Notes: generated by a model from the sequence alone, not told the origin. A DNA stretch of 40,449 nt from an uncultured Prevotellaceae bacterium (GCA_946187025.1 CAMHPM010000001.1:1-40449); one strand, 5' to 3'. Counted from the first letter of the stretch, positions 7,348 to 28,314 are shown. A program made the numbers and translations.

Positions 7348-7416
7348 CGCAGATACAGTCTGTTTTCACGACATGCCCTCTCTTCATTCGTCAGGGTAAT
7401 GGTTGCAATGTAAAAT

Positions 7417-7543: not shown

Positions 7544-7664
7544 AAACGGCAGGCTGTCAAGTATCAGTTTTTGCTGCCTTGGTGATTTCTTCTTTGCTGA
7601 CAGACATGGCCAGATTGTCGCTGACCATCATCTGCAGGTTTACGTTTTACTGTTTGCCACCGAC

Positions 7665-10471: not shown

Positions 10472-10688
10472 CGTCTCATTTACTATTTACGATTTACCAT
10501 TTAATTATTTGGAATGGAAAGGAATGGAAAAAAAGTTATCGCTTCGCTATGAAGTTAAAAGGACGGATGTTGCCTCGGAGTAGGTATCGTCCCTTTAACT
10601 TCCCTTTAACTTCCCTTTTTACTCCCTTTTAACTTCTTTTTAACTTCTGTTTTATTTACTATTTACGATTTATGTACTATTTAACTAT
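10472..10688. repeat. Composite repeat-filled spacer between gcvPA and gcvPB
   Basis: Contains catttactatttacgatttaccatttaattattt (10477-10510), ggaatggaaa x2 (10511-10530), a 15-bp hairpin GAAGTTAAAAGGACG (10551-10565) / CGTCCCTTTAACTTC (10588-10602) with a 22-nt loop, CTTTAACTTCC word repeats (10588-10649) and tttatttactatttacgatttatgtactatttaactattt (10651-10690). Confidence 0.8.
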
Positions 10689-12032: not shown

Positions 12033-12070
12033 GCCTTTGTGTGTAGGAGTGAGAGAATGTGTATGTGTGT

Positions 12071-12454
12071 TTAATGGTTGGCGCAGAATGCCTCGTAGGC
12101 AGCTGCATCCATCAGGTCGTTGAGTTCGTCGGGATTGCTCATCTCCACCTTGATAATCCAGTTGGCGTATGCGTCGGCATTGAGCAGTTCGGGTTGGTCG
12201 GCCAGTGCCTCATTCACTTCGACCACGGTTCCGCTCACGGGCGAGTTGAGGTCGCTGGCGGCCTTCACGCTCTCCACGGCTCCGAATTCTGCACCTGCCT
12301 CAACATCGTCGTCAACATCGGGCATATCTACATAAACCACGTTGCCCAGTGCGTTCTGAGCATAATCGGTGATTCCTACATAGCCATATTGGCCGTCTAT
12401 TCTCACATACTCATGACTCTCGCTGTAGTAGAGTCCTTCTAATACTTTTGACAT
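12071..12454 (-). CDS. gcvH: Glycine cleavage system H protein
   Basis: 127-aa ORF with the lipoyl-lysine motif VESVKAASD and YSESHEYV near the N-terminus. Confidence 0.92.
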   Translation of the reverse strand: MSKVLEGLYYSESHEYVRIDGQYGYVGITDYAQNALGNVVYVDMPDVDDDVEAGAEFGAVESVKAASDLNSPVSGTVVEVNEALADQPELLNADAYANWIIKVEMSNPDELNDLMDAAAYEAFCANH

Positions 12455-12462
12455 AATCTTAT

Positions 12463-12503
12463 TTAATGAATAATGAATAATGAATAATTAATAATGAATA
12501 GCT
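12463..12503 (-). repeat. AT-rich leader cassette (CTATTCATTATTAATTATTCATTATTCATT family) just 5' of gcvH
   Basis: The minus strand reads gCTATTCATTATTAATTATTCATTATTCATTATTCATTaaataagattATG. Near-identical cassettes sit 5' of argH, apt and deoC. Confidence 0.8.
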
Positions 12504-12562
12504 GGTGCTTGAAGTAGATTGCCAATAGTTCCAATCTCACCTGCACGTACCTGGTCTAGCCT

Positions 12563-13654
12563 TTACTTCTTATAATGTTTCTCGTAGAAGCGTTTCTTCA
12601 CCACCACTCCCTTGAAGGTCTTTTTGCGGATTTGTATCTCGAGTTGGGTGTCCAGTTTGGCATATTCGGTATCGACGAGGGCCATACATACGCTCTTGCC
12701 CGTGGATATCGAGTTGTAGCCGGTGGTCACTTCGCCTACCTTCTTTCCGTCGGCCAGCACATCGTAGCCGTGGCGTGGTATGGCCCGGTCGGCCAGTTCG
12801 ATGCCTACGATGCGGCGTGCCACTCCCTCCTCTTTCTGTTTCACAAGTGCTTCCTTGCCTATGAATTCAGGTTTGTCGAGTTTGCAGAACATGCTGAGTC
12901 CTGCCATCACAGGCGATATGTCGGCACTGAGTTCGTCGCCGTAGAGTGGCAGGCCTACTTCAAAGCGCAGTGTGTCGCGGCATCCGAGTCCGCATGGCTT
13001 GCAGCGGCCAGAGTCGATGAGGCGGTCCCACTGGCGGCGTATGAAGTCGTGTGATGCATATATCTCGAATCCGTCTTCGCCTGTATATCCGGTGCGGCTC
13101 ACGATGATGTTCTCGCCTTCGTGCTCGATGGTTTTGGCGTGATAGAAGGTGAGGTCGCTGCCGTCGATGCCCAGCACTTCGGCCATCACGCTTTCCGACT
13201 CGGGTCCCTGTATGGCCAGCTGTCCGTAGTGGTCGGACAGGTTGCGCAGGTCGATGTCGAATCCTTCGGCATGGCTTTGCATCCACTCCCAGTCTTTGTC
13301 GATGTTGGCTGCATTGATTACGAGGAAGAAGTCGTCTTGCCCCATCTTATACACCAGCAGGTCATCGACCGTTCCGCCGTCGGGGTAGCACATCATGCCG
13401 TAGTAGATTTGTCCCGTGGGTGCATCGGTGATGTCGTTGGTGAAGATATGGTTCACATATCGTTCGGCATCGCGCCCCTTGACGCTCACTTCGCCCATGT
13501 GCGACACGTCGAACACTCCACAATGCTGCCTGACTGCATTATGTTCGTCGATGATGCCAGAATACTGGATTGGCATGTCGAATCCGCCGAAGGGCGAAAT
13601 CAGTGCACCCAGTGCCACATGTTTGTCGTATAGACACGTACGTTTGTTTTCCAT
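12563..13654 (-). CDS. gcvT: Aminomethyltransferase (glycine cleavage T protein)
   Basis: 363-aa ORF with LYDKHVALGALISPFGGFDMPIQY and VFDVSHMGE blocks characteristic of GcvT. Confidence 0.92.
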   Translation of the reverse strand: MENKRTCLYDKHVALGALISPFGGFDMPIQYSGIIDEHNAVRQHCGVFDVSHMGEVSVKGRDAERYVNHIFTNDITDAPTGQIYYGMMCYPDGGTVDDLLVYKMGQDDFFLVINAANIDKDWEWMQSHAEGFDIDLRNLSDHYGQLAIQGPESESVMAEVLGIDGSDLTFYHAKTIEHEGENIIVSRTGYTGEDGFEIYASHDFIRRQWDRLIDSGRCKPCGLGCRDTLRFEVGLPLYGDELSADISPVMAGLSMFCKLDKPEFIGKEALVKQKEEGVARRIVGIELADRAIPRHGYDVLADGKKVGEVTTGYNSISTGKSVCMALVDTEYAKLDTQLEIQIRKKTFKGVVVKKRFYEKHYKK

Positions 13655-13660
13655 AATCTT

Positions 13661-13718
13661 ATTTACTATTTACAGATTGACCATTTACTATTTGTATTTA
13701 TTGTTCATTTACGATTTA
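13661..13718 (-). repeat. GTAAATAGTAAAT-type AT-rich word repeat 5' of gcvT
   Basis: The minus strand reads gttaaatcgtaaatgaacaataaatacaaatagtaaatggtcaatctgtaaatagtaaat. The same words flank gcvPB and gcvPA. Confidence 0.75.
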
Positions 13719-13719
13719 A

Positions 13720-14787
13720 CTATCTAGCTATTTTTTCCGGATGGCACTCCCTCCCCATAAAGGGGGAGGGCTGGGGAGAGGGTCTGTCTCTCCCCCCTGG
13801 GGGAGCAGGGAGGGGGCCCATTATCAGTTCCACAAAGTCCAGCTTGCTGAGGTTACGCACAACTTGCGGCAGCGTGTCGGGCACAACCTTCAGCAGGGCT
13901 TCATGGTTGAATGGTGTGCCTTTCATGCGGTGCAGTATGCTGTCGAGGTCGCCCATGATGAAGTAGTCGCCAAACATGTCGATGTCTTTCAGCACTCCGC
14001 GGCTCACTTCCATGTGTGCTTCGATGGTGCCCACGCCTTCAATCCTGCGACGGCGCACCACCGTGTAGCGTGGGTTGCGCCCGTAGATGAAGGCAGGGTC
14101 GAGGTATTCGCGTTCTATCTCGCGTATGCGACGGAGGTCGTCGGCTGTGAGACAGAGCTCGTCGTGGCACAACGTGGTGCGTACGTGTTGCTTGAAATCG
14201 TCGATGCTTAGGTCGAGATGGTCTTTGAGTAGGGTGATGCGTCCTCTCACGCTCTTCACGCCTTTGCTCTCGAGTTTCTGTGTGTCGGGGGTGATGCTGC
14301 CCAGCATGTGCTCCATGTTGGTGTCGTAGAGCATGGTGCCATGCACCACGCTATATCCTGGCAGGTGGTAGAATGCGTTGCCGCTCACTTTGCGCTGGCC
14401 GACCAGGATGTCGTTGCGCGGAGTGCCGTGGGCGTCGAGTCCCAACTGCCTGAGCATGGTCACCACCATGGTGATGTATCGGTTGTAGGTAAGTGCCACA
14501 CTATCCTGTGGCGTGATGTAAGAGAACATGATATTGCCACGGTCGGCATACACGCATCCGCCGCCGCTCTTGCGACGATACATCCGTATGCCGTGAGTGC
14601 GACAATAAGCGGTGTTCACTTCGGTGTCAATCAGTTGGTTACGACCAAAGATGACACTCGGCTCCACCTGCCACATGAAGAAGGCCTCATGCGGCAAACG
14701 TTTCTCTCGTGCCAGGTATTCCTCGGTGGCGAGATAGAAACTCAGGGGCAAGCGGTCGCACCCCTCGGGTAAGGATATATAAACCAT
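13720..14787 (-). CDS. lplA: Lipoate-protein ligase A, whose last ~32 codons are read out of a G/C-rich repeat copy
   Basis: 355-aa ORF with blocks typical of LplA/BPL_LplA_LipB (RRKSGGGCVYADRGNIMFSY, KVSGNAFY). The C-terminus GPLPAPPGGRDRPSPQPSPFMGRECHPEKIAR coincides with repeat 13736-13818. Confidence 0.85.
   Translation of the reverse strand: MVYISLPEGCDRLPLSFYLATEEYLAREKRLPHEAFFMWQVEPSVIFGRNQLIDTEVNTAYCRTHGIRMYRRKSGGGCVYADRGNIMFSYITPQDSVALTYNRYITMVVTMLRQLGLDAHGTPRNDILVGQRKVSGNAFYHLPGYSVVHGTMLYDTNMEHMLGSITPDTQKLESKGVKSVRGRITLLKDHLDLSIDDFKQHVRTTLCHDELCLTADDLRRIREIEREYLDPAFIYGRNPRYTVVRRRRIEGVGTIEAHMEVSRGVLKDIDMFGDYFIMGDLDSILHRMKGTPFNHEALLKVVPDTLPQVVRNLSKLDFVELIMGPLPAPPGGRDRPSPQPSPFMGRECHPEKIAR
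13736..13818. repeat. G/C-rich dispersed element, a partial copy overlapping the 3' end of lplA
   Basis: tccggatggcactccctcccc matches the element terminus. Hairpins are CCCTCCCC/GGGGAGGG and GGGAGAG/CTCTCCC. The core ctctcccccctgggggagcagggaggggg lies at 13788-13816. Confidence 0.6.
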
Positions 14788-15388: not shown

Positions 15389-18300
15389 TTACTTAATCAA
15401 GACTTTATTTCCATTAAAGATATATACACCTGGAACGGTAGGCCTGTCGGTGCCGTAGCGGATGCCCTGCAGGGTGTACCACACACCGTAGGCCATAGTA
15501 TCACCGACACCGTCGATGCCCGAGGCCATGTTGATGTCGATGACAAATGGCTCCCATGGTGTGCCTATGCTGCCATCGCTGGCATAGGTCAACGTGGTGC
15601 ATACAGTCCTGACTGTGCCATTGATGCTGGCTTTTATCTCGATAGGCTGTCCGCTGCCCTCGCCGGCCACGAGCAAGTAGTAAAGTCCGTCGTCGGCAAA
15701 AGCAGTACCACGGCACTCACCGTCGATGAATGCAGCAACCTCAGCATCGGTGACAGGCTGGTCGCCATCAGTGAGCATGATGACGAGGGCCATATTGTCA
15801 GGATAGTCGGTTGGTGCAACAGGCGAGAATGCAGAAGCAGGAGCTGGATGACGTGCAGCAAGCATTCGACGTGAAGGAGCCGATACAGAGACTGCTGGAT
15901 AGACAAAATGTTTCTCCGTAGTGTCTGTACTGAAATAGAGGTATCCTCTGCCGGCCTCTAACGCATCGAGGTTACCCTCCCATCCGTATGGGCCGTAGTA
16001 TGCAAAGGCTGTCTGCGACTTCACCTGGTCGCCCACCTGCGGATTGGCACCAGCCAATGCCTGGCCGATAGGCATGGTGGTCATAGGTGTGTAGGCAATC
16101 CAGTTCCAGTTCTTGCCGATAGTGACAGGAGTCTCTTCTCGTTTCACTTGCTCGCCGTTGACGATAAGCGGCTGTGGCAACTCGCTGTTGCCATCAATGC
16201 GTGTGAGCTGAAGCTTGTACATCGTGTTGGCATGTACCTCCTTCAGGTTTCCTGCCCAGTAGTTGCCACGACTGTAAGCCACGCCAGAAGTCTTGTCCTT
16301 CAGCTGTGCGTTCCAAGACACCAGGTCTTTCAGCACGACAGATGTCTTGGCTTGCACTGGCTCCACGCCCAGTGATATCCAGTTCCACCCGACGCGTATG
16401 TCGAGCGGCTGCTCTACGAGATTGCTCTTCTTGAATATCACAGGATGGTCGAAGGTACCATAGCTCTTGGTCGGGTCGAAGGCCAGAGATATCAAAGCGG
16501 AGTCAGGTGTCGCAGAGAATGACGCAGGCTGATTGATGATGACGTTTGTGTAGGTCATGCCTGTCGCAGCATCCCATATACGGAAGGTGACTGGCTGCTG
16601 CTTGTCGAGATTTGTCAGCACGCCGTTCACCATCTGTTGGGCATTGCCATAGACACTCATGGCCACATAGGCCGCACCACGCATCTGGCTAGGTGAGGCG
16701 ATGCCACGGCACTCGTCGCCTATGAAGGCAGCCAGGATGCTCTCGCTGTTGCTCATGAGAATACCGTTGACGTAAATCTGTCCGACAATACTCATGTTGT
16801 TCTCATAGTCATTCGGGTTGACACTCCATGATGGCTTATCGCCCTTCACATTCATCACGATGCGCAGAGGTTCCAGAATCTCGTTGTTACCCTGCAGGCC
16901 GATGGTCACATCATAATTGCCCACTGCAACTAATGGATTGACCTTGAAGCGCAGCGTCTTTGTCTTCAACGGGTCGATATCATCGGTATAGTTGCTTCCG
17001 ACGAGAGTGAGCCACTGCGGCAGGTTATACAAGAAATAGTATTCAGTGTTGCCGCCACGGTTCTCGATGTTCACGTCGAAGGTGTAGTCGTCGCCGTATT
17101 TCTTGATGATGTTCACTGAGTCTTTCATCCACTTCAGAGTGTTCAGCTGCACGTAGGTAGTCCATCTGATTGGTGCCGACTCGTTACCGTGCATGTCGTG
17201 AATCTTGTCAACTGTGACATTGAGTGTGCATCCTTCTACATCGCGTGCCTTGATGTCGGCACCCTCCTCCAGACGTATGACGATTTTACGCTCCGAGGCT
17301 ACAGGCTTGGCAATGATGCGGCTCTCGACCGGGGCGTTCTTCAACGGCGGTGTCGAAGCAACAAGCATCGTCTGTCCCGACGGAGTAATCGTCAGAGACT
17401 TTCCGTTAACCTTCGAATTAGGAGCCATGTTCTCAAGCGTTTCGACCATGGTGCTGACACCATTTTCCTTGCCTGCCTTCTCAAAAGGATAATAAGCCAC
17501 CAGTCCACGTGAAAATACATCTGCGGTATCGATGCAGTTGTATTGGTTGGCCAACAGGCGGCTCTCGGAGAGTGATGCATGCCAGATGCGCACCTCGTCG
17601 ATATTCGAGAAGTCTAACATGCCCTTACCTAAAACAAGCCTTGAGCCCACCAACGGCGGCACGTCGCGCTCAGCGATGACTGCTGTGCGCTGTCCTTTGA
17701 AATAGAAGCTGGCAGCCTGTCCGCGCACCACGTTCAGAGCCACATGGCTCCATCCATATACGTCGGGGAACTCACTCTTGCTTACCACCACCTGCTCCTT
17801 GTCTCCGTAGCGCAATATCCAGTCATTCTGTTGGTTGATATAGAGCTGCAGGCGGTTGCTGTCGTTGCTGCCAGTCTCGAAGACGGTACGCTCCTTATTG
17901 GCGTTACCACCTGCCGGTAGTACCCACATCTCAATTGCATAGCTGTCGCCCTGACCGGTGTTGACGCGGCTGATGTCGGCCACCACGCCTTCTTCATCGT
18001 CAAGCCGTAGAGCATAGTTTTTGTTGTCCAACAGCCACGAGTTGTTGACCATGAAGTCGTGGGTATGACGCGTGTCAGCAGCCACATAGCCATGACCTTC
18101 CTTCATTGGCCAGTAGTTGACGAGGCCATAGTCGTAGTTGTCTTTCGCCTGGTTCTTAGTGGCGGCAGCCTCAATCACGTCGCGGTAGATGCTGAACAGG
18201 GCAAGGTCGTGCATGGCACCATACATATCGCCGAGGTAGAGGTGGTTGTCGTCGGAATATTGTACCTGCTGAATTGCAGTGTCGGGTACTATCTGGTCGG

Positions 18301-21300
18301 TGAATAAATGTAGTGTGGTATTGCCGTAATTAGCCAGGGCACTGAACTTCCGCCCGGCCGAATTATAACTCAGCACGAAGTATGTCCACTCGTCTTTTGG
18401 CACCACGTCACTGCTGGCTATATCCACATGTCCCATGCTTACCACGATATGTCCTTCTTTATCGACTCTCAGGGCAAACTGCTCTGGTCCAAGTCGCAAG
18501 ATGCTGCCCGCATCATTCCATCTCATCCAGAAATCCACTGAGAAGTCGCCGTTAAGGAAGACAGGGTTCTGCGTCATCTGCTCGTCACCATATGGAGTGA
18601 GCAGTTTTGACACGTCGTGAGCCACAGGCTGGTCGTTGAGTTTGGCGGTGATAATGATGTTATCGTCGCTAATATAACCCGGTACGATGTCCTCGTTGAA
18701 TTCCACCACCAAGTCATCACCATAGCGCAGGATGCCATTGGCCGGCAACGGAGTGGTGAGATTGCGTGGACGCACATTGTCCTTGACCACGGCCACCTCG
18801 CTGCTGTACGTGTTGATATCCTCGGTGCCATACTTAGTAGTTGTATAGGCACGGAAGGTGTAGTTACCCTGTGGATAGAAATTGTCGTCGCTCATGTTGA
18901 AGCGCAGGCGCAGGTCGCCAGTGGCCGGGAGCACATGGTCGTGCAGCTTAGTGGAGTCGGAGCGATTGACGAGGAATGTCAGTGTGTCGGGCCGTGTCCA
19001 GGTTGTAGAACCCTCGTAGCGGTATTCAACACCCACCTTCGTCATGCCCTTGAACTGGCGGTTGAAGTTAGTGACTTTCAGTTCCAGGTCACCCTCGTTG
19101 CGTCCCAGCGTCTCGAGGTTGAGCACCGGCTCGCTGATAGCCAGGTCGACAGGCGATGAAGCGGGTACGAAGTGAGCATTGAGCGTCACCTCGTCGTAGA
19201 TTTTGAGAGGCTGGTACTGCGAGCAGAAGCGTATCTTGATGCCTTCGTAGTGCAGAACACTCTGGTCGGTCTGGCGTATGGTCAGCACCTTCTTCGTTGT
19301 CTCTTTATGATTCAGAAGCACCGAGCGTCCGTTGACAGGCACACCATCCATCAGTATCTCCAATCCCTTATCATTGGTTTGCTCCACGATAATAAGGTTG
19401 TAGCTGAAGTTGACTCCCTGATTCACGTTGGCCATGTTAGTGCAGTAGAGTGTGACATTGGCCTCACCGCCTGCAGGGATGTCGGTCACGGTGACACTCT
19501 TCGACGAATTCTGGTCGCCCACGGCTATACCCAATTGGGGTTGTTCCATCTGTTGTGTGGAATTGCCGAGAGGTGTCCCTGGATTATAATACTGAGTGAC
19601 CTCTTGTGGCTGGTAGGGATTGTAGGTCTGTCCGCCGAAGACACTGAAGAAGTCACTGTACTTCGGGTTGTCCGACTTGTAGATATTGATTGAGAGGTCG
19701 GTGTCGCGGTTGCCGTCGTTGATAGAGTATTCCCACTCGGTGTAGTTCTCCGACTTGGTGCCGTTACCCTTGGTGAATCCGCCTCCGTCTTCAGTGCTGA
19801 TGTTGACAATATCTCCTACCGTGGCCAAGGCTCTGGAGCGAAATCCGAACTTATCACCGAGCACGAATCCCATCTTCCAGGTACGCGTCACCTGGTCGTT
19901 TTTCGAGTGGCTGGTCCTCTTCGAGTAGCTATAGCTTGTGCCGCCGTCGATGGAAATGTTCTCAGGCAAGGATGTGTTCATCAGCTCCAGCTTGTTCTTC
20001 TCGTTCTCCTCGATGGCTTTCTCCCATGCCACAATCTGATTGTTGCACCATGCCACACTGTCTATAGCGGCTCCTGCAGGCGGTGCTGTCGTTTCCCAAC
20101 TCTTAGGTTTCGCCCATAGGTAGTCAGTTCCCTCGGTATAGTCGTCGAGGTTGAGTCCTTTCCACGTCAGGTAAACAGATTCCTCACCGTTGTTGACGTA
20201 TGACTTTGCCGCTTCTTGGGAGGCCACTTCGGTGAGGAAATTGCGACGCATGTCCTTCCACTTTGGTATCATGACCGTCTGCAACTCATACTGGGTATAT
20301 TTGAAAGCGGTGGCGATGGAGTCGCCGACAGCGATGGCATCTTCCAGTTTCAGCTCATAATTGCCAGTCTGCAGGTTCTTGCTGATGAAAAGGTGACGGC
20401 AGCCGCCGATGAGGAAGTTGGTGGAGGTGCCAACATAGACGTCGCCATCGGCACCCACGTATGGATAGGTGCCACTGGTGGAGACATTCTCTGTGGTGGT
20501 CTCTACATCTATTTTGTCGTAGTTCCATACCTTCTCCCACGAGGTGTTGACACCGATGTCCAATTCGTTCTTTATTGCATGTCCCGTTATGACCATAAAG
20601 CCCAAGCCAGTACCTTGCACTACGTCCAAGCCCCAGACTACATTGTGGATTAAGCTGTAGTTGCCGTAGGCGCGTCGGGTGTCGTAAGTGGTGGTGGTAG
20701 TGATCTTGCCGGTCTTCAGCTTGGTGGTTGACTTGGCTCCATGCGGGTCGCGCAACACGAAGTTCACATGGTCCGGTCCTTTGGTGACGAAGTTGCTGCC
20801 ATAGCTCAGCTGGCCGAGTACCACTGCGTCCATGTTGACAGGAACGTATGTGCGGTCCTTGCGGTTCATGTTGATAGAGAAGTGTCGGGTGTATGGTTCT
20901 ACGATGTTAGGCAGTCCCACTCCCCATCGGTAGATGAGGTGGCCATCGGCACCGAGCTGCGTGTTGTTGGTCTTCAGCTCGTAAATCTCGCCGGCCTTGT
21001 AGGGCGATGACGGGTCGTCAACCTGGTAGATGACTGCCTGCTCGTCGCTCATCTCGTTGACGAGCGTTATCTCCTGTCCTGTCAGTGGCACGATGTCGGT
21101 CACGTCTTCCTCGCCGTCGTGGTTCACGTAGCGCTCGAACCCGAAGATGTCGTATTCCACTTTATTGCCCATGTCGTAGATAGGATAGCCCACCAGGTAT
21201 TTCACCGAGTCGTTGTTCTGAGTCCACAGGTCGCCAATGGTATATTCTGCTCCCTGCTCGTCGGTATAGACTATTTCCTGCAAACCGAAGATACCAGGGT

Positions 21301-24300
21301 CGTGACCTTTCTCCGTAATTGAGATTTCAGGCGGTGCATAGTATGTGAACACTTTCTTGGTGTTGTACTTGTAGGCAGCAGTCACGCTGTCGCCTTTGGT
21401 GTCGTCCCAGTGGGTCAGCGAGTCGGTGCGTGACATGCCCGGGCTGGTGAGGTCAATCTCTGGCTGTGCCCCGAAGTCGATGTCGGGATTGTTGTCCACA
21501 CCAACGCTCTTCACCATATATTTCAGCGGCGGCAGCAGTGCAGAGAACTCTCCCGAGAGCGAGTCGGTGCGTATGTAGATGTACTTCGCATCGTAGTCGA
21601 TGCCCGTCCATGCCGTGCTTTGTATGGTGGTGGTGTCGCTCTGCCAGGTGCGCCGGGTTGTGGCAGTGGTGATGTGGTCGTCGTCGCGGCAGTTGAGCGA
21701 GAACGACTCGTTGAGCAGCCCCAGGCGTATGGTGGCTATGCCTATGTTGTTTTTCGACTCGGCAAAGCCCACAGCCAGTGTGTCGTTGCGCTCGCCACCG
21801 CCCACCCGACCGACGAAGTTGACGAGTGTGGAGTCGGTGAAATCGTGTGTCATGGCGCGGTCGAAGTAGAACGTACCCTCGGCAGGGAAGCGTCCGCCAT
21901 CCACCATTTTGTGGCTCTCCAGTTTTGCTTCGACATAGTGCCGGCCTATAGGCACTGAGATGTTGTAGTAGCCATTGCTTGATGTCATTACCGACTTGCC
22001 GTCTTTTGATACCGGCATACCGTCAACATAGAGCATGATACCCTCTGCCGGTACGTTCGTTCCGGCATAATAGACATAGCCGCTCATGGGGAATGACGAC
22101 ACATCTTCGAAGTCGGCAGTGTGTACGAGTGAGTTCTTGCCCACGAAGACCAATGTCTTGGTTGAGTTGAACTCGTGAACGCCATAGAGGGGAACTACGC
22201 AGTAGGTTGTACCCTCGCCGGTGAACGGTATGCCCTGGATGATGTAGTTGCCGTCGGCATCGGTTTTGGCTTTCATCTTCAGCGCATCGGGCGTGAGGGT
22301 TGACGATTGTGCATTGCTTCCTATCAGTCCGTGGTGCTTGCGATAGCTGCTACCGTCGCGTGAGTAGTCGAAGAACTGTGTGCGCAGACCCTCGTCGAAG
22401 GTCCAGTAGGTCTCCAGTTGCTTCTCGTCGCCTACGAGCAGGTGGTCGTAGTTCTCGATGATGTCGGCCTCGGTGAGGCATTTCGTCCACAGGCGGAACT
22501 CATCGACAGAGCCTTTGAAGTGACCCAGTTTGAACTGTGACACATTGGCCTGCGGCCAGGTGCTGCCGGCCGCCCACGTCTGTGTAGAGACCTGTACGGT
22601 CGGAGAGCCATTGTCGCTGCCGGGGGTCAGCACATAGCAGGTCAGCGTCGTGCCCTTGCGGGTCAGTGCCACATGGTTGTAGGTCTCTTTACGAAGTGAG
22701 ATGCTGTCGAATGCATCAGTGCTTGTCCCGTTGCAGAAGGCCAGCTGGCCGCTGGATGTCATGCCGAGACCGATGCCGCCTCCGAAGTCGGCTATCAGCC
22801 TGTCGCTGAATGTCTCGGGATAGAGCCACATCTGAATGGAGAAGTCGCCACTCTTGAAGAGGTTGGCAGCATAGTCCTCTGAAGGATACTGCCATGTCAC
22901 GGCTCCGTTCATGTCGGAGAAGTAGATGGAGTGGAACTGCTCTGTCTTGCCCGTATCATTGCCAGTGATTGTCATCACTACATCGACACCCTGAACGGCC
23001 GTACCGGTGGAGCCATAGGCAATGCGGCCAGTCACGGTGCCGGTGCTCTTGGCGAATCCGATGTCGGTCACCTCGCCAGTGATGATGGTTCCGTCAGAGC
23101 ATTTGTCTTCGACGGTGATACGGTAGTCGTAGTAAACTCCTGGCAGAGCCGTCTCGTCGGTGTAGAACATATAGTCCTCGTTGCTCGACAGGCGTGTGAG
23201 TACTTCCCACGCTTCGTTCTCCTGCTCGGCACGGCGCCGCTCCACGATGTATGTCTTGGTGTATTGCGAGCCCTGCTGGTCAACATGCCACGACAGTTTC
23301 ACCGAACCCTCATAGATGCCCTTTGACGCATCAAGTCCGTAGAACTTGGTTGCCTCGCCGATGGCCTTCGGATTAACGGTGTATGTGTTGAGCACCGAGT
23401 TGCCGATAACACCTTCTATGCGGTATGTATGTGGGGTACATGCATTGAGTGGCTCCTCGGTGTAGGGCACTCCCGTCTCTGAGTCTACCTTATTCTGCCG
23501 GTTGATGTGCTGGTCGGTGGTGCGGTGTTCCCATCGCATGGTGTTCTGCATGTTGCCTGGTGTCAGCGTGTAGATTGGCGAGTCTTCATCATCGACATAG
23601 ATGCGGAACTTGTGGCCGAAGCCCTCGGGATAGGCATCGGAAGTCCAGGTGAAGACGATGCGGTCGTCAAGCTGCTCTGCCTTGAAGTCCCTTACAGGTA
23701 CTGAACGTGTTGTGTTTATTGTCACCGTGGCCTGCGTGTCGTCGCGCCGTGTTGTCATGTCCCAGAAGTTCGAGACATAGTACACGTCGTAAACCGTGTT
23801 TGACTCGTTGGTGAATCCGCTGTCGGAATAGGCATTGACCTTTGATGTCAGTTCGGCAATCTTTGTGCCATCGCGGTAGACCACCCATTTGAAATCAGAA
23901 TAGTTGCCTGGGATTGAAGGGGTGTTCCATGCCAGGTTCACTTTCTTGTCGCCTTGGTTGAACACGCCTTTCAGGTTATTGGCCTTGATAATAGGTGGGT
24001 TGATGGTCACGGTTTTGCTGATGACCTGACTGTTGTTGGCAAAGTCGATATCGTTGGCAGAGACACCTACAAGATACGCCTCCACGGTGTAGTTGCCCAC
24101 ATTTATGCCTACAGGTGTGGAGGCAGACCATGGCCCGCCGTTCACCCTGTATTTCAGTTTGCCGTAGTTGCTGTTCCACGGATTCTTGGTTATCAGGTCT
24201 TGCTTCTTGCCATTGAATGTGAGGTCATTGGCGAAGGTGGGTTCCTCCTTCCACTTCAGTGTCTGTGTGGTGAAGTGTTGTTGTATATAGATAAAGTCGC

Positions 24301-24862
24301 CGCCGGCTTCTTTGTTCACGTCGCAGATGCCGGTGTATTTGGAGTTGCGCCACGATACGGCAGCCGTATTCGGATCATTGTCTTCGGCTGCGTTGGTCAC
24401 CGACATGGCGGTCAGCACACGCTCGTCGGCACCGTATGAGGCAAGTTGGCCACGGTCGCGGGTGTAATATACAAAGATGTCGGCACCACCGGCACCACGG
24501 TTGAGGTCGCCGTTGAACCCATTATTACTTGATACCCTGTAGTAGGTGCGACCCTCGAAGGTGAAGGAGTTCACCGCCTTGTCCGATGTGCAGATGTCGG
24601 TGATGTAGCCTGTCTCGGGATTGGCAGTGCTGCTGGTCTTATAAATGATATAGATGTCCCAGCCGCCGGCACCCTTGTTAAGGTCGTTACCCAGTACTGT
24701 CCAACCCTTGTTGATATACTCGGTTCGCACAGTGCCTCCCTTGCCTTTTTCTGCACCGATAGTCATCACCTCGGTGATGTACTCCTGGGCATGCATGTTC
24801 GTCAATGCACCTACCAACATGAGCGCTGTGGCCATTATGCGGGTCATTAGCTTTGTTTTCAT
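15389..24862 (-). CDS. Giant (3157 aa) T9SS-secreted multidomain surface protein, a putative lectin or adhesin
   Basis: Uninterrupted 9474-nt ORF. Domain map by residue: signal peptide 1-25 (..TNMHA|QE); three-fold repeat 27-198 (DLNKGAGGWDIYIIY / DLNRGAGGADIFVYY / DVNKEAGGDFIYIQQ); Fn3-like modules about 291-600; LamG-type modules about 641-825 (VDEFRLWTKCLTEADI), 2095-2255 and 2285-2462 (IDEVRIWHASLSESRL); CarboxypepD_reg-like about 860-985 (DADGNYIIQGIP, SSNGYYNISVPIGRHYVEA). The C-terminal YGVWYTLQGIRYGTDRPTVPGVYIFNGNKVLIK fits a type-A T9SS sorting domain. Confidence 0.9.
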   Translation of the reverse strand: MKTKLMTRIMATALMLVGALTNMHAQEYITEVMTIGAEKGKGGTVRTEYINKGWTVLGNDLNKGAGGWDIYIIYKTSSTANPETGYITDICTSDKAVNSFTFEGRTYYRVSSNNGFNGDLNRGAGGADIFVYYTRDRGQLASYGADERVLTAMSVTNAAEDNDPNTAAVSWRNSKYTGICDVNKEAGGDFIYIQQHFTTQTLKWKEEPTFANDLTFNGKKQDLITKNPWNSNYGKLKYRVNGGPWSASTPVGINVGNYTVEAYLVGVSANDIDFANNSQVISKTVTINPPIIKANNLKGVFNQGDKKVNLAWNTPSIPGNYSDFKWVVYRDGTKIAELTSKVNAYSDSGFTNESNTVYDVYYVSNFWDMTTRRDDTQATVTINTTRSVPVRDFKAEQLDDRIVFTWTSDAYPEGFGHKFRIYVDDEDSPIYTLTPGNMQNTMRWEHRTTDQHINRQNKVDSETGVPYTEEPLNACTPHTYRIEGVIGNSVLNTYTVNPKAIGEATKFYGLDASKGIYEGSVKLSWHVDQQGSQYTKTYIVERRRAEQENEAWEVLTRLSSNEDYMFYTDETALPGVYYDYRITVEDKCSDGTIITGEVTDIGFAKSTGTVTGRIAYGSTGTAVQGVDVVMTITGNDTGKTEQFHSIYFSDMNGAVTWQYPSEDYAANLFKSGDFSIQMWLYPETFSDRLIADFGGGIGLGMTSSGQLAFCNGTSTDAFDSISLRKETYNHVALTRKGTTLTCYVLTPGSDNGSPTVQVSTQTWAAGSTWPQANVSQFKLGHFKGSVDEFRLWTKCLTEADIIENYDHLLVGDEKQLETYWTFDEGLRTQFFDYSRDGSSYRKHHGLIGSNAQSSTLTPDALKMKAKTDADGNYIIQGIPFTGEGTTYCVVPLYGVHEFNSTKTLVFVGKNSLVHTADFEDVSSFPMSGYVYYAGTNVPAEGIMLYVDGMPVSKDGKSVMTSSNGYYNISVPIGRHYVEAKLESHKMVDGGRFPAEGTFYFDRAMTHDFTDSTLVNFVGRVGGGERNDTLAVGFAESKNNIGIATIRLGLLNESFSLNCRDDDHITTATTRRTWQSDTTTIQSTAWTGIDYDAKYIYIRTDSLSGEFSALLPPLKYMVKSVGVDNNPDIDFGAQPEIDLTSPGMSRTDSLTHWDDTKGDSVTAAYKYNTKKVFTYYAPPEISITEKGHDPGIFGLQEIVYTDEQGAEYTIGDLWTQNNDSVKYLVGYPIYDMGNKVEYDIFGFERYVNHDGEEDVTDIVPLTGQEITLVNEMSDEQAVIYQVDDPSSPYKAGEIYELKTNNTQLGADGHLIYRWGVGLPNIVEPYTRHFSINMNRKDRTYVPVNMDAVVLGQLSYGSNFVTKGPDHVNFVLRDPHGAKSTTKLKTGKITTTTTYDTRRAYGNYSLIHNVVWGLDVVQGTGLGFMVITGHAIKNELDIGVNTSWEKVWNYDKIDVETTTENVSTSGTYPYVGADGDVYVGTSTNFLIGGCRHLFISKNLQTGNYELKLEDAIAVGDSIATAFKYTQYELQTVMIPKWKDMRRNFLTEVASQEAAKSYVNNGEESVYLTWKGLNLDDYTEGTDYLWAKPKSWETTAPPAGAAIDSVAWCNNQIVAWEKAIEENEKNKLELMNTSLPENISIDGGTSYSYSKRTSHSKNDQVTRTWKMGFVLGDKFGFRSRALATVGDIVNISTEDGGGFTKGNGTKSENYTEWEYSINDGNRDTDLSINIYKSDNPKYSDFFSVFGGQTYNPYQPQEVTQYYNPGTPLGNSTQQMEQPQLGIAVGDQNSSKSVTVTDIPAGGEANVTLYCTNMANVNQGVNFSYNLIIVEQTNDKGLEILMDGVPVNGRSVLLNHKETTKKVLTIRQTDQSVLHYEGIKIRFCSQYQPLKIYDEVTLNAHFVPASSPVDLAISEPVLNLETLGRNEGDLELKVTNFNRQFKGMTKVGVEYRYEGSTTWTRPDTLTFLVNRSDSTKLHDHVLPATGDLRLRFNMSDDNFYPQGNYTFRAYTTTKYGTEDINTYSSEVAVVKDNVRPRNLTTPLPANGILRYGDDLVVEFNEDIVPGYISDDNIIITAKLNDQPVAHDVSKLLTPYGDEQMTQNPVFLNGDFSVDFWMRWNDAGSILRLGPEQFALRVDKEGHIVVSMGHVDIASSDVVPKDEWTYFVLSYNSAGRKFSALANYGNTTLHLFTDQIVPDTAIQQVQYSDDNHLYLGDMYGAMHDLALFSIYRDVIEAAATKNQAKDNYDYGLVNYWPMKEGHGYVAADTRHTHDFMVNNSWLLDNKNYALRLDDEEGVVADISRVNTGQGDSYAIEMWVLPAGGNANKERTVFETGSNDSNRLQLYINQQNDWILRYGDKEQVVVSKSEFPDVYGWSHVALNVVRGQAASFYFKGQRTAVIAERDVPPLVGSRLVLGKGMLDFSNIDEVRIWHASLSESRLLANQYNCIDTADVFSRGLVAYYPFEKAGKENGVSTMVETLENMAPNSKVNGKSLTITPSGQTMLVASTPPLKNAPVESRIIAKPVASERKIVIRLEEGADIKARDVEGCTLNVTVDKIHDMHGNESAPIRWTTYVQLNTLKWMKDSVNIIKKYGDDYTFDVNIENRGGNTEYYFLYNLPQWLTLVGSNYTDDIDPLKTKTLRFKVNPLVAVGNYDVTIGLQGNNEILEPLRIVMNVKGDKPSWSVNPNDYENNMSIVGQIYVNGILMSNSESILAAFIGDECRGIASPSQMRGAAYVAMSVYGNAQQMVNGVLTNLDKQQPVTFRIWDAATGMTYTNVIINQPASFSATPDSALISLAFDPTKSYGTFDHPVIFKKSNLVEQPLDIRVGWNWISLGVEPVQAKTSVVLKDLVSWNAQLKDKTSGVAYSRGNYWAGNLKEVHANTMYKLQLTRIDGNSELPQPLIVNGEQVKREETPVTIGKNWNWIAYTPMTTMPIGQALAGANPQVGDQVKSQTAFAYYGPYGWEGNLDALEAGRGYLYFSTDTTEKHFVYPAVSVSAPSRRMLAARHPAPASAFSPVAPTDYPDNMALVIMLTDGDQPVTDAEVAAFIDGECRGTAFADDGLYYLLVAGEGSGQPIEIKASINGTVRTVCTTLTYASDGSIGTPWEPFVIDINMASGIDGVGDTMAYGVWYTLQGIRYGTDRPTVPGVYIFNGNKVLIK

Positions 24863-24881: not shown

Positions 24882-25802
24882 TTATTCTTGCTTTGTCAGT
24901 TTAAGGTTGGCAGGGTAGAACTTGCCAGCCTTCAGAGTGGCAGAGGCAGTGCCGGTGTAGGTGCCTTCGCTGTTTTCCACGGAGAAAAAGATGTTATATC
25001 CTGAAACAGGGAAAAGCGCCACATACACACCGTCGGTGGTTTCAGCGTCGAGGGTGATGACAAGTGGCCCGTCCCAGTCTTTTTGGGCTGCGGGCACCAC
25101 TGCAACATCGCCGACAGATGGGGTCAGTGTGCCTGTTAGCGGATAATCAAGTAGTGATGGGCCATAGATTGCATCATCTTCATAATACCGAATGCTGAGC
25201 GACTTCACAGCAATGGGGTTGGTGCCATCGTTGAACTCAAACTTGGCTAACGCCAAAAGCGACTGCATCGACGATATGGAGGCATTGGCCGTAGTCTCTG
25301 TCACCGATGTCACCTTTCCCACGCCATATACATAGTGATAGCGTTGGGCCACATCGCCCAGTGTGCCTTTCTGCCCGCTCAGGCTGATGGTGAATTTCCC
25401 CCTGTTCTCGCCCGACATGATGGGGGCAGTAGCAGGGTAGAGCAGCGCTATGTTGTCGTTCACCGAGCATCTCACCGTGCCGGTAAATGCCGACGTGGCG
25501 GCCGACGAAGAGGCATATAGAGTGCCGTAGTCCATCACACCAGAGCCGAACGAACTCACGTTGAAGTATGTTGCCGCATCGCCTGCGTTCCAGCTGGCTC
25601 CCAGTGTACTTATGTTGTCCGTAAGCGTTGCCCTGGTGAGGGGCACGTCGGACACTGTCATCTGCAACAGCTTTCTACCGTCGCCCTGTTGTTCCACCCC
25701 CTCCGGTTCGTCATCGTCAGCCGAACAAGAAGTCTGTATACAGCCCAATGGCAAAAGGCAAAACACTATCATGATGCCTATCTGTAAATTTAGTTTTTTC
25801 AT
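24882..25802 (-). CDS. Surface-exposed lipoprotein, fimbrillin (FimA/Mfa)-like, co-transcribed with the giant gene
   Basis: 306-aa ORF. The signal peptide MKKLNLQIGIMIVFCLLPLGCIQTSC is followed by the acidic stretch SADDDEPEG, which resembles a Bacteroidetes lipoprotein surface-export signal. Strings such as DVPLTRATLTDN and SLLALAKFEF resemble fimbrillin-family proteins. It lies 19 nt upstream of the giant ORF. Confidence 0.6.
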   Translation of the reverse strand: MKKLNLQIGIMIVFCLLPLGCIQTSCSADDDEPEGVEQQGDGRKLLQMTVSDVPLTRATLTDNISTLGASWNAGDAATYFNVSSFGSGVMDYGTLYASSSAATSAFTGTVRCSVNDNIALLYPATAPIMSGENRGKFTISLSGQKGTLGDVAQRYHYVYGVGKVTSVTETTANASISSMQSLLALAKFEFNDGTNPIAVKSLSIRYYEDDAIYGPSLLDYPLTGTLTPSVGDVAVVPAAQKDWDGPLVITLDAETTDGVYVALFPVSGYNIFFSVENSEGTYTGTASATLKAGKFYPANLKLTKQE

Positions 25803-25816: not shown

Positions 25817-25981
25817 TTATCTACGTGAAAAGCCCCCTTCCTCGTCCTTGTCATATCCCGACATCGAGGAACGGACGCCGCGTGTCGGTTCTTCGCTCGT
25901 CATGAGCACACTCTGGTGGACAATCATGGTTGCCATCACCGATGGCTTGGCATACTGTTGTTTCTTGATGTTCTGTTTCAT
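25817..25981 (-). CDS. Candidate 54-aa small ORF heading the lipoprotein / giant-protein unit
   Basis: Hand translation gives MKQNIKKQQYAKPSVMATMIVHQSVLMTSEEPTRGVRSSMSGYDKDEEGGFSRR*. It falls below the 60-aa cutoff of the ORF track. It has an A-rich leader (aaaataatcacacaaaaaaaatagcaacattATG) and stops 14 nt before the lipoprotein ATG. Confidence 0.3.
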   Translation of the reverse strand: MKQNIKKQQYAKPSVMATMIVHQSVLMTSEEPTRGVRSSMSGYDKDEEGGFSRR

Positions 25982-27348: not shown

Positions 27349-27525
27349 CGTTTCGGCGAGACATACTATCTGGGTCATGATTGCAAGACCCTGCGAGAGG
27401 TGACACCCGAAGCAAGCGGCACGACGGTGATATATCAGAACCTCATTTTGAGGCTCCTTTCGACAGAAGGCGATATGAACGTGACTAGCCTCAAGATATA
27501 CGACGAAATAGAAAACCCGATAACC

Positions 27526-28314
27526 ATGACAGCCATTAAGAGTTTGAATAAGACAGCATCTATTGCACTTGCCATTATTTGTGTATCGGCATCGATGATA
27601 GCATGCAATGGCACGGGTAGCGGAGAAAATGGGAATATAAGTCAGTTGGTAATCATCGACACACTGCCCGGGGTGCGTATCTACACACCGCAGTTCAGCA
27701 GTATCGACTTGCGGTGCGGCACCATGCCCGACACGTCGGAACGGAACGTGGTGTTCTGTGCCGAAGCAGCTTTCACTCATGCCCTGCTCGACACATTCAG
27801 CCACTCAAACATCGACGGCAACCACGTGAGCGGCGGACAATGGTATGAAGGCGCCACATGCATTGAGACCCCCGAGCGAGTGGGCAACACGGGCGGATTC
27901 GTGTGGTACGACGGACAGTATGAGTTTCTGCCCGACACAGCGTCGGCCGAGGCAGCACTACGCCGTGCAGCCGAGGCGGGTGGTATGGGGTTCTGCCAGG
28001 AATACATCATTCACGAAGGACGCTACCAATCCAACACACGCACCGAAAACCAGAAGTTCAACCGCGTGGAGATGTATCGTGTGCTGGCTCTCATAGACGA
28101 CACACTGCGCATCGTTGAAAACACAGAGCCCATGCACTTCTCCGACTTCGTGCCCCTGCTGCTGAAAGCCCGGGTGATGGAAGCACTGTATATGGACATG
28201 GGTGCCGGATGGAACCACTCGTGGTATCGCACCGCTGACGGCACCGTACACGAGATTCACCCCACCGACTTCAAGTCGCAGTATTGCACCAACTGGATAA
28301 CATTCTACGAATAA
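27526..28314 (+). CDS. Lipoprotein of unknown function, possibly phosphodiester glycosidase / DUF2233-like
   Basis: 262 aa from the internal ATG of ORF 27400..28314. Signal peptide plus lipobox MTAIKSLNKTASIALAIICVSASMIAC|NG. The family call is tentative and rests on the strings GGFVWYDGQYEF and ALYMDMGAGWNHSWY. Confidence 0.6.
   Translation: MTAIKSLNKTASIALAIICVSASMIACNGTGSGENGNISQLVIIDTLPGVRIYTPQFSSIDLRCGTMPDTSERNVVFCAEAAFTHALLDTFSHSNIDGNHVSGGQWYEGATCIETPERVGNTGGFVWYDGQYEFLPDTASAEAALRRAAEAGGMGFCQEYIIHEGRYQSNTRTENQKFNRVEMYRVLALIDDTLRIVENTEPMHFSDFVPLLLKARVMEALYMDMGAGWNHSWYRTADGTVHEIHPTDFKSQYCTNWITFYE

Follow-up and report, generated by a model that had tools for sequence, protein, structure and literature searches.

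A 3157-aa all-beta protein of a rumen Prevotella-like bacterium belongs to an uncharacterised and very large giant-protein family with exchangeable ends

Prevotellaceae dominate the rumen, and their attachment to plant fibre, microbes and the host is poorly understood. The window analysed here, a stretch of 40,449 nucleotides from an uncultured Prevotellaceae bacterium (GCA_946187025.1, CAMHPM010000001.1:1-40449), contains one open reading frame that is by far its largest, and the product had been predicted to be a long surface lectin or adhesin stalk exported by T9SS. The locus thus raises the question of what kind of protein this is and how it would reach and hold the cell surface. We consider it probable, at roughly 0.6, that it is a giant non-enzymatic cell-surface fibre, T9SS-exported, anchored at its C-terminus and carrying a distal N-terminal binding head. 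What the analysis shows are the domain calls, a core homologous to that of proteins with canonical T9SS signals, swapping of the head and of the C-terminal module, and conserved partner genes; secretion route, orientation, anchoring and ligand we infer. The gene, the parts of its product (in order from the N-terminus) and the neighbouring partner gene are as follows.

15389..24862, minus strand: whole giant gene; ATG start, 3157 codons plus stop, single uninterrupted ORF
24788..24862, minus strand: predicted Sec signal peptide covering aa 1-25, Gln being the +1 residue, read from the translation
24263..24781, minus strand: head, predicted three-repeat MABP-type beta-prism, aa ~28-200, from the family profile against PDB and DLN motifs
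23048..24262, minus strand: Ig/Fn3-like beta-sandwich region, aa ~201-605; sub-threshold Pfam matches only (RGI_lyase beta-sheet domain, Ig_Rha78A_N, Phage_ABA_S)
22460..22864, minus strand: LamG domain 1, aa 667-801; Laminin_G_3, E 1.8e-16 on a tile
21863..22459, minus strand: most conserved stretch of the family with CarboxypepD_reg-like sandwiches, aa 802 to ~1000, from the conservation profile and Pfam
20888..21862, minus strand: beta-sandwich domains, aa ~1001-1325; AF2 model mca019ae9c7ba, pLDDT mostly ~73-92, one block at 68
19721..20887, minus strand: long-hairpin module predicted by AF2, aa ~1326-1714
18593..19720, minus strand: beta-sandwich domains, aa ~1715-2090, all-beta in AF2, including the string at aa 2031-2059 that the original prediction called SbsA-Ig
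18143..18580, minus strand: LamG domain 2, aa ~2095-2240; second Laminin_G_3 stretch, internal repeat with LamG domains 1 and 3
17543..18127, minus strand: LamG domain 3, aa ~2246-2440; Laminin_G_3 at aa 2301-2434
16826..17542, minus strand: beta-sandwich domains, aa ~2441-2679; AF2 model m9b7e96a07457, weak CARDB match
16493..16825, minus strand: A module copy 1, aa ~2680-2790, AAFIGDECRG motif; profile-detected repeat with aa 3015-3115, E 1.4e-11
16178..16450, minus strand: B module copy 1, aa ~2805-2895, GWNWISL motif; repeat with aa 2905-2980, E 1e-6
15863..16165, minus strand: B module copy 2, aa ~2900-3000, NWNWIAY motif; internal repeat
15527..15820, minus strand: A module copy 2 (A2), aa ~3015-3112; internal repeat
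15392..15526, minus strand: tail of ~45 aa, aa 3113-3157, GI...WYTLQGIRYG...PGVYIFNGNKVLIK; presumed truncated T9SS sorting signal
24882..25802, minus strand: upstream partner gene, 306-aa fimbrillin-like lipoprotein, 19 nt from the giant gene

The giant gene had been described as the window's largest and as one ORF opening with a Sec signal peptide, and this description stands: the predicted signal peptide, MKTKLMTRIMATALMLVGALTNMHA followed by QE, reads as a basic n-region, a hydrophobic core and a candidate cleavage point between MHA and QE. The motif positions given by the original prediction are all correct (VDEFRLW at residues 786-792, MHDLALFSIY at 2217-2226, IDEVRIW at 2421-2427 and the C-terminal string at 3127-3157). 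As had been stated, the protein contains neither HExxH nor a P-loop; HxxEH and GxSxG are likewise absent, and no enzyme family was found in Pfam, NCBIfam or PDB sequence searches. An obvious toxin motif had not been seen either, in agreement with Pfam and PDB searches in which no MACPF, aerolysin/ETX-MTX2 or other toxin family was matched. AF2 models of aa 801-3157 are almost entirely beta. A secreted, all-beta and apparently non-enzymatic protein is the part of the earlier reading that holds.

The gene, genuine and intact, belongs to a giant-protein family that is very large and uncharacterised, and its host is a rumen Prevotella-like bacterium. The original prediction could not name a family, and homologues indeed carry no other titles than 'LamG domain-containing protein' and 'hypothetical protein'. 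More than 120 full-length homologues share 36-96% identity and keep a length of ~3150 aa, the core is common to more than 2000 clusters at 50% identity, and a genome scan with two peptide patterns from the close subfamily revealed up to four paralogues per genome. A rumen-only distribution cannot be claimed, because the scan covered patterns of the close subfamily and distant relatives are recorded only as Bacteroidota, candidate division KSB1 or JGI metagenome. Of each family protein, well over half is left without a match to any described domain when curated thresholds are applied; Pfam and NCBIfam searches of the C-terminus and Pfam searches of the central region gave zero matches, no named adhesin family was matched in Pfam or NCBIfam, and the family profile returned nothing from PDB at E<=1 besides its beta-prism, LamG-like and tail matches. 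No paper describing the family was found in the literature. GhpA grappling hooks were considered and set aside.

Three LamG domains had been proposed from their closing motifs, and profile searches bear them out: Laminin_G_3 (PF13385) exceeds its gathering score, with 107 bits in total (E 1e-30) over the stretches 667-801, ~2100-2230 and 2301-2434. The profile matches of the third domain in PDB are the LamG-like domain of arabinanase 5hon, 4dqa and pentraxin PTX3. The shorter distant relatives, among them at least some partial records, have no LamG2/LamG3 region, and the most conserved parts of the giant protein lie outside the LamG domains. The LamG domains are accessories to a conserved core, for which no database has a description. 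The image of a long surface lectin or adhesin stalk was sound as to secretion, the non-enzymatic character and the three LamG domains, but 'lectin-rich stalk' leaves out what the family conserves, its core and the A and B modules near the C-terminus; the predicted MABP-type head, the swapping of heads and the conserved fimbrillin-like partner gene had also been overlooked.

Among the beta-sandwich regions, the Fn3-like call survives weakly, with sub-threshold matches only over aa 200-640 (RGI_lyase beta-sheet domain in 7/10 members, Ig_Rha78A_N in 4/10, fn3 in 1/10 at E=1). The CarboxypepD_reg call, scored on a tile, stops at 28 bits where the cut-off is 32.3; for many homologues the family is precomputed. 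The SbsA-Ig call is unsupported by profiles, SbsA-Ig/Big_5 giving zero matches on the giant protein at E<=10. The conservation profile peaks at aa 802-950, with up to 81% identity, and AF2 confidence at aa 801-920 is low (pLDDT ~25-38); the region at aa ~1001-1325 is without Pfam match. Foldseek matches of the aa 2001-3157 model, assigned to the model as a whole, include the HYDIN PapD-like structure 2e6j and 2qsv of P. gingivalis. Assignment from whole AF2 models (both against PDB, model 1 against BFVD) was rejected, the search yielding generic beta-sandwich strings only (alpha-2-macroglobulin, complement, HYDIN, contactins and Gram-positive pilins). The hairpin, A and B modules are unassignable from Foldseek because the query-normalised TM-scores are <=0.12 and the matches are such generic strings.

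The head of the protein appears, on sequence grounds, to be an MABP-type beta-prism as in bacterial MACPF toxins, and it is swapped among paralogues. It contains three repeats, each with a DLN-type motif (DLNKGAGG at 60, DLNRGAGG at 119 and DVNKEAGG at 181, i.e. D60-L61-N62, D119-L120-N121 and D181-V182-N183), and the family profile matches the C-terminal beta-prism of Mpf2Ba1 in PDB (residues 407-476, E 7e-8), a single-sequence search of the head against the same prism giving E 7e-4. In Mpf2Ba1, the DLN motifs coordinate Mg2+ on the axis, at a site that its authors label membrane-binding (PMC10344926). The likeness extends to Mpf1Aa1/Plu-MACPF and GNIP1Aa, which, with Mpf2Ba1 (8b6u, 8b6v), have a C-terminal prism of three-fold repeat and one D-L-N per repeat. 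Unlike in these toxins, the prism here is N-terminal on a 3157-aa protein without a MACPF domain, and it is one among several interchangeable heads: in ~17 of 54 related loci it is exchanged for a Listeria-Bacteroides-repeat head or an unannotated head.

Family-wide, the conserved parts comprise an unannotated central region of ~900 aa, including the long-hairpin module, and the duplicated C-terminal A and B modules. Sequence and length conservation is even along the giant protein, a pattern not usual in passive adhesin stalks. Detection of the internal repeats needed profile slices, because BLASTP of the giant protein against itself found none; W2826, N2827 and W2828 of the first B module copy are invariant. 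The hairpin module is kept in distant relatives. AF2 predicts two long hairpins in it (1379-1418/1424-1461 and 1644-1677/1680-1714; strands of 34-40 residues), a third hairpin (1475-1495/1502-1523; strands of 21-22 residues) and helices at 1524-1542 and 1602-1630, with pLDDT of 43-73 for the two long hairpins and of ~60-86 for the module core. Zero matches were obtained with Pfam on the hairpin/central region in 11 family members, or with a PDB sequence profile search of aa 1320-1720 at E<=10. The family's least conserved segments (24% identity) fall at the hairpin tips, where length is kept and Thr, Ser and Gly are frequent; Thr makes up 14-18% of the long hairpins versus 9% overall, and Ser and Gly are also enriched. 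In the low-confidence AF2 model, hydrophobic-polar alternation along the long hairpins is partial or weak, and they are polar overall (mean hydropathy -0.5 to -0.8).

Head and hairpins together could be read as a surface-tethered membrane-attacking or pore-forming protein, in which the prism would bind a membrane and hairpins 1379-1461 and 1644-1714 would oligomerise or insert like those of beta-pore-forming toxins, in contact-dependent killing of competitors or protozoa. The homology of the head to the membrane-binding prism of Mpf2Ba1, with its DLN motifs kept, fits such a role, as do the length of the AF2 strands, the Thr/Ser/Gly enrichment and partial alternation of hairpins that are least conserved yet constant in length, and a core conservation too high for a mere spacer. 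We nevertheless regard it as very unlikely: MACPF, aerolysin and ETX_MTX2 were unmatched in Pfam (whole protein, tiles and 11 members) and in PDB (aa 1320-1720), the long hairpins are polar, weakly alternating and modelled at low pLDDT, and the prism head is dispensable, because paralogues bear other heads; beta-prisms also serve as lectins. We would give slightly less credence still to the broader proposal that the unannotated core (hairpin module, aa ~1326-1714, plus A and B modules) is a new surface-tethered membrane-attack or oligomerising device, the prism docking on the target membrane and the hairpins assembling or inserting; in that case it would be a giant, contact-dependent pore former, delivered by T9SS and with a wide spread in Bacteroidota. 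A surface fibre with a binding head remains the preferred reading.

How such a fibre would leave the cell depends on its C-terminus. A type-A T9SS CTD had been assigned there, and this call did not withstand profile searches: TIGR04183, TIGR04131 and PF18962 were unmatched on the last 120 or 378 aa at E<=10, and the tail is at best a truncated CTD remnant of ~45 aa. It resembles the canonical type-A CTD (TIGR04183/PF18962) in lying at the extreme C-terminus, in its ending ...G(V/I)YI.NG.K..(V/I)K and in a 'YDL.GR' strand, and it fills the place of the full type-A CTD of relatives; it differs in measuring ~45 aa instead of 70-90, in lacking the N-terminal 'VYPNP...' strands and in falling below curated thresholds. 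TIGR04183 matches the tails of five of ten tested relatives sub-threshold (E 0.003-0.05; 13.5-17.6 bits against a cut-off of 23). Hhalign of the tail against the canonical CTDs of relatives aligned only 13 columns (E 0.003, probability 10%), so that the reading as a truncated CTD derives from position and context, not from direct similarity, and the tail could be another kind of signal.

Position and context are best illustrated by P0316, which has 25% identity to the family member used as query of the outward search (P0270) and whose aa 1245-3285 are matched by positions 1095-3099 of the A1 family profile (score 1017). Its Por_Secre_tail occupies residues 3305-3384, scores 40.6 bits where 27 are required, and comes right after the A2 module; the tail here is positionally equivalent, with A2 preceding both. 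A2 precedes a canonical CTD or a dockerin in the distant relatives checked, except P0322. PF18962 is precomputed for P0316-P0325, the name given to P0328 is T9SS type A sorting domain protein, and P0305, P0306 and P0308 bear a type I dockerin (Dockerin_1) in place of the tail. In P0327 the shared core (E 1e-69 and 3e-77) is accompanied by a CHU_C domain of type B, and a downstream PorP_SprF gene overlaps its stop codon; neither of these marks of type-B cargo (CHU_C/TIGR04131 domain, adjacent PorP/SprF gene) was found in the giant protein or the window. The tail is also portable and conserved across clades: GH2, alpha-amylase/CBM26, serpin, DUF4957/DUF5123 and esterase proteins of related loci terminate in it, as do the PDB entries 4kca (rumen arabinanase, E 8.5e-5) and 7jvi. 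Many Prevotella encode T9SS; no T9SS machinery gene (porK/L/M/N, sprA/sov, porV, porU) lies within the 40-kb window. Status as T9SS cargo is supported indirectly, by relatives that share the core and carry, at the place of the tail, a canonical CTD, a type-B CTD with PorP_SprF, or a CTD-bearing small partner gene.

The same evidence bears on whether T9SS exports the protein in this bacterium at all. The tail might be a degenerate remnant or some other retention signal, with the protein periplasmic or surfaced otherwise, for example by the pathway of the fimbrillin-like lipoprotein. The zero T9SS profile match on the giant protein points that way, as do the retention of only about half a CTD, the weak profile-profile similarity and the kind of partner found in this clade, a type V pilin-like lipoprotein and not a CTD protein or PorP. 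This seems distinctly improbable to us, given that the tail is under selection, being conserved across clades and reused on many obviously extracellular enzymes, and that core-sharing relatives carry canonical type-A or type-B signals plus PorP/SprF. Export of the fibre by T9SS is thus preferred. If the 45-aa tail were a working T9SS signal, it would be unusually short and common to many rumen carbohydrate-active enzymes, two of them with PDB structures, and it would be useful for annotation and secretion engineering.

The partner gene lies directly upstream of the giant gene in 20-25 related loci, at 36-96% identity. Its product has a predicted lipoprotein signal, with the Cys followed by an acidic run (CSADDD here; Cys and SSDDD in the homologue alignment), and a predicted maturation site at the Arg of TRATL, which is kept in most aligned homologues. 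The Mfa_like_1 profile aligns from its position 8 to position 233, out of 246, at E 0.0028, reaching 18 bits where 27 are required, and matches 8 of 15 partner orthologues (best E 8e-5), all below the cut-off; a search against PDB sequences gave zero matches. Mfa5 is a T9SS-dependent accessory protein of the Bacteroidales type V pilus with FimA/Mfa1 fimbrillins. The present locus recalls that system in its upstream fimbrillin-like lipoprotein with a mostly kept Arg, and in a large CTD-type neighbour reminiscent of Mfa5. It departs from type V pilus loci in having only one pilin-like gene, below the Pfam cut-off, and no usher-like or anchor genes, and the giant protein, unlike Mfa5, is without a vWA domain.

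In other clades, a different partner is encoded immediately downstream of the giant gene, a small protein with a signal peptide, an A module forming its N-terminus, and a CTD or tail. This A-module partner is absent from the present clade, the fimbrillin-like one is absent from P. communis and distant clades, and the two partner types showed no relationship when compared with hhalign. Partners are not obligatory, because P. communis has a giant gene with neither.

These arrangements could also suit a surface scaffold or organiser, whose A and B modules would bind A-module partners or dockerin- or tail-bearing enzymes in a cellulosome-like display. The fixed length and even conservation across more than 2000 clusters agree with this, as do the A module recurring in the small, secreted and translationally coupled partner of distant clades, the type I dockerin ending some members, the dockerin at the C-terminus of the window's M6 peptidase, and the up to four paralogues per genome. 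Yet no cohesin, dockerin or other known docking module was detected in the giant protein, and a binding role for the A module is conjecture because that module has zero relatives in PDB and Pfam. This clade is moreover without an A-module partner, and swappable distal heads suit target recognition better. We hold the scaffold to be unlikely, and favour the fibre with a distal binding head.

SprB and RemA of Flavobacterium johnsoniae are large T9SS-secreted surface adhesins of Bacteroidota, and the giant protein resembles them in overall design, with its Sec signal peptide, its thousands of beta-sandwich residues and its presumed C-terminal T9SS signal, and RemA also in having a lectin-type domain. 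The dedicated neighbouring gene for an outer-membrane partner recalls the sprB-sprF pair, an arrangement seen alike in the distant member P0327, with its type-B CTD and PorP_SprF. In contrast to SprB and RemA, the protein has a fixed architecture and length that do not come from varying numbers of repeats, its core is built of unannotated hairpin, A and B modules, and only a 45-aa tail and a fimbrillin-like partner are present. Prevotella are not known to glide.

In the fibre that we favour, the protein would cross the inner membrane by Sec and the outer membrane via T9SS, using the tail as a shortened ~45-aa CTD derivative, and its C-terminal end would hold it at the cell surface, where the fimbrillin-like lipoprotein, if co-transcribed and surface-exposed, is a plausible docking partner. 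Some 20-odd beta-sandwich modules would project an exchangeable N-terminal head outward, here an MABP-type beta-prism with a putative DLN metal site. The head and the three LamG lectin-type domains may then bind a glycan or membrane surface, such as plant cell wall, another microbe or host epithelium. Counting against this reading are the zero CTD profile match, the 13-column hhalign result, a 40-kb window free of T9SS machinery genes, the P. communis gene with neither partner, and the even conservation of a protein whose best conserved parts are not its LamG domains. An exchangeable head, a conserved core and an exchangeable C-terminal module (CTD, mini-tail or dockerin) offer a handle on the binding versus the anchoring end.

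Sigma-70 promoter and terminator scans were uninformative, and Bacteroidota promoters depart from that consensus; Rfam and tRNA scans found nothing. Apart from the adjacent partner genes, synteny is not conserved. Housekeeping genes (the glycine cleavage operon, lplA and a PRTase) make up the flanks in this window, which also encodes the M6 peptidase with its C-terminal dockerin.

The product of the giant gene (3157 aa) is best read, at a probability of roughly 60%, as a C-terminally anchored binding fibre exported through the T9SS. Such a fibre would be sorted and anchored at the surface via its C-terminus, and its distal, exchangeable N-terminal head, together with its LamG domains, may bind a glycan or membrane surface. 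Window features discussed here include the following:

15389..24862, minus strand: giant gene, an uninterrupted ORF with an ATG start and 3157 codons
19 nt upstream of the giant gene: fimbrillin-like gene (306 aa) of the window's clade, in the same position in 20-25 loci
3873..14787, minus strand: housekeeping genes, downstream of the giant gene
27400..28314, plus strand: 304-aa ORF without a Pfam family
31337..31876, plus strand: 179-aa ORF without a Pfam family, with only weak zinc-ribbon-like NCBIfam matches

The giant gene was confirmed as a single ORF and the largest in the window, all others being far shorter, and by homology it is clearly real, because the homologue search retrieved more than 120 full-length homologues (36-96% identity) with lengths held at ~3150 aa. 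It belongs to a large family, already in databases and wholly uncharacterised. When 1.84 billion cluster representatives were searched with a profile built on residues 1120-2000, 2025 clusters matched at E<=1e-3, of which 1145 reached E<=1e-30; informative names were lacking for all 15 representative clusters that were checked. Among the 150 matches listed, most run to 3100-3500 aa and carry the region in the same place, and the shorter ones look like fragments. Scanning one genome per species yielded 69 loci, a count that rests on two peptide patterns and sets no bound on family distribution; by record title these belong to MAGs of Prevotellaceae or Bacteroidales, the majority of them stated to come from ruminant samples, and a single genome can contain as many as four paralogues.

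The strings quoted in the original prediction were all located at the residues it had assigned (VDEFRLW, 786-792; RPRNLTT..., 2031-2059; MHDLALFSIY, 2217-2226; IDEVRIW, 2421-2427; a C-terminal string, 3127-3157), and the N-terminus (MKTKLMTRIMATALMLVGALTNMHA|QEY), judged from the translation, fits the Sec signal peptide it had proposed. Its three LamG modules scored well above the Pfam cut-off as Laminin_G_3 (667-801, ~2100-2230 and 2301-2434), and the family profile also matches LamG-like domains in the PDB. CarboxypepD_reg fell below the cut-off in the giant protein (28 vs 32.3 bits) but is precomputed for many homologues; beta-sandwich families match residues 200-640, where Fn3-like modules had been placed at aa ~291-600, but all below threshold, and the SbsA-Ig call found no profile support on the giant protein. 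A CarboxypepD_reg-like sandwich whose first strands lie at aa ~608-632 may be interrupted by an inserted LamG1. The predicted absence of HExxH and P-loop motifs was borne out by a motif scan, which found no HxxEH or GxSxG over the full length either, and no enzymatic family was detected in the protein across all profile libraries searched.

Conservation is even along the entire giant protein, with a peak at residues 801-950. The most conserved family stretch (window 22300..22460, minus strand; aa 802-855, NYDHLLVGDE..LETYWTFDEGLRTQFFDYSRDG..HHG) contains several His, Asp and Glu residues invariant across the family; it resembles the strand with which a LamG domain opens, yet no such domain follows it, and AF2 left residues 801-920 unmodelled (pLDDT ~25-38). 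For residues 801-2000 (mean pLDDT 73.6), AF2 predicted beta-sandwiches until ~1320 and, at ~1326-1714, a module of three hairpins and two long helices, with strands of 34-40 residues in two of the three hairpins. Pfam searches with 11 members left this module unmatched, as did a sequence search of the PDB. Conservation within the family is lowest at the tips of the two long hairpins (24% identity), which nevertheless keep their length and have a high content of Thr, Ser and Gly. Residues 2001-3157 were predicted as all-beta (pLDDT 80.9), and profile slices delineated two duplicated modules, A (2680-2776 and 3015-3115, with AAFIxxECRG) and B (2812-2885 and 2905-2980, with GWNW). The earlier description of a lectin stalk was partly right, the LamG domains being real, but it underrated the conserved core, whose conservation is too strong for a spacer, and it overlooked the hairpin module and the duplicated A and B modules. 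An alternative reading, a surface scaffold or organiser, we consider rather unlikely.

The proposed type-A T9SS C-terminal sorting domain (CTD) was not recovered: TIGR04183, TIGR04131 and PF18962 all failed to match the last 120 or 378 residues, even at E<=10, and the ~45 residues left beyond the second A module are too short for a normal seven-stranded CTD. These results give some room to the view, which we hold improbable, that the giant protein is not T9SS cargo in its source organism, and the C-termini of its relatives have to be weighed against it. An outward search from one divergent member reached proteins of 2900-3390 aa (25% identity) whose alignments cover most of the family profile. 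One of them, P0316 (profile positions 1095-3099, score 1017), bears a canonical Por_Secre_tail (residues 3305-3384, 40.6 bits vs a cut-off of 27) directly after its second A copy, the position of the short tail in the window protein. Several relatives of 2100-2400 aa lack the LamG2/LamG3 region and retain the hairpin module along with the A/B region at the C-terminus; one of them, P0327, has a type-B CHU_C domain as its last module, and its stop codon is overlapped by a PorP_SprF gene, the classical type-B cargo arrangement, and another, from candidate division KSB1, bears the name T9SS type-A sorting domain protein. In the distant relatives P0305, P0306 and P0308, a type I dockerin replaces the tail. 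Since Por_Secre_tail, CHU_C and dockerin domains occupy the tail position in relatives, the C-terminal module is, on sequence grounds, a cassette for sorting or anchoring that can be exchanged. It is from the C-terminal signals of these relatives that we infer the family as a whole to be T9SS cargo.

The tail itself keeps the pattern TGI...(W/V)YDL(Q/S)GRK...KGVYI.NG.K..VK across clades. TIGR04183 gives sub-threshold matches to it in five of ten relatives tested (E 0.003-0.05), and profile-profile comparison with canonical CTDs gave a weak match (13 aligned columns). It also terminates PDB entries 4kca (rumen arabinanase, E 8.5e-5; residues 641-682) and 7jvi (residues 810-841) and, at related loci, a GH2, an alpha-amylase with CBM26, a DUF4957/DUF5123 protein, an esterase and a serpin, the last with a sub-threshold Por_Secre_tail match. 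Position and context suggest a truncated type-A signal. The motif (TGI...YDL.GR...KG.YI.NGKK.V.K) is a portable C-terminal tag of many secreted carbohydrate-active enzymes and a serpin in gut Bacteroidota (loci L004, L030, L040, L048, L061 and L070), mostly missed by standard T9SS CTD profiles.

At the other end, a predicted MABP-type prism head, missing from the original architecture, comprises three repeats within residues ~28-200 (bearing DLNKGAGG, DLNRGAGG and DVNKEAGG), and a search with the family profile hits the beta-prism at the C-terminus of Mpf2Ba1, a MACPF toxin (E 7e-8). That prism, related to the MABP domain of ESCRT-I, has one DLN motif per sheet and coordinates Mg2+ on its three-fold axis, at a site labelled by the authors as membrane-binding (PMC10344926). 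Kinship with a toxin brings to mind a surface-tethered pore former, which we judge very unlikely. In ~17 of 54 full-length loci, another head of ~300 aa stands in place of the prism; one alternative type terminates in a Listeria-Bacteroides repeat (Flg_new, E 1e-10), and another has no Pfam match. The giant protein belongs in kind with giant T9SS surface proteins, from which its family differs in its fixed architecture, undescribed core modules, MABP-prism head, head and tail swapping, and possible mini-CTD.

In the 306-aa lipoprotein encoded by the upstream gene, an acidic run comes after the Cys, similar to the Bacteroidota surface-export signal. The Arg in its TRATL string is kept in most aligned homologues, and 8 of 15 orthologues give sub-threshold matches to Mfa_like_1 (fimbrillin-like) that span almost the full profile. 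Distant rumen clades and non-rumen Bacteroidota have a different partner, a small protein with a signal peptide, an A module and a tail or CTD, encoded directly downstream of the giant gene and often overlapping its stop codon; none occurs in the window, and the giant gene of P. communis has neither partner type. In very distant members, the gene directly downstream always encodes an outer-membrane or surface partner (L073 13912..14895; L074 17251..18441; L072 17979..18608), with type-B CTDs accompanied by PorP_SprF and type-A CTDs by a small A-module protein with Por_Secre_tail.

A 53-aa ORF (25820..25981, minus strand; MKQNIKKQQYAKPSVMATMIVHQ...) lies a short way upstream of the fimbrillin-like gene; present only in the two closest relatives (L003 and L026), it may not be a gene. 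An 829-aa protein (538..3027, minus strand) has an M6 (immune inhibitor A) peptidase domain (E 1e-22) and, at its C-terminus, a type I dockerin (E 5.5e-13), a module that is unusual for Prevotellaceae; no cohesin was identified. The housekeeping genes encode a lipoate-protein ligase, GcvT, GcvH, a split glycine dehydrogenase (two subunits), a dihydrolipoamide-dehydrogenase-like flavoprotein, and a pyruvate formate-lyase-like glycyl radical enzyme with its radical SAM activase; these genes have no relation to the giant gene, nor are they syntenic with it in other genomes.
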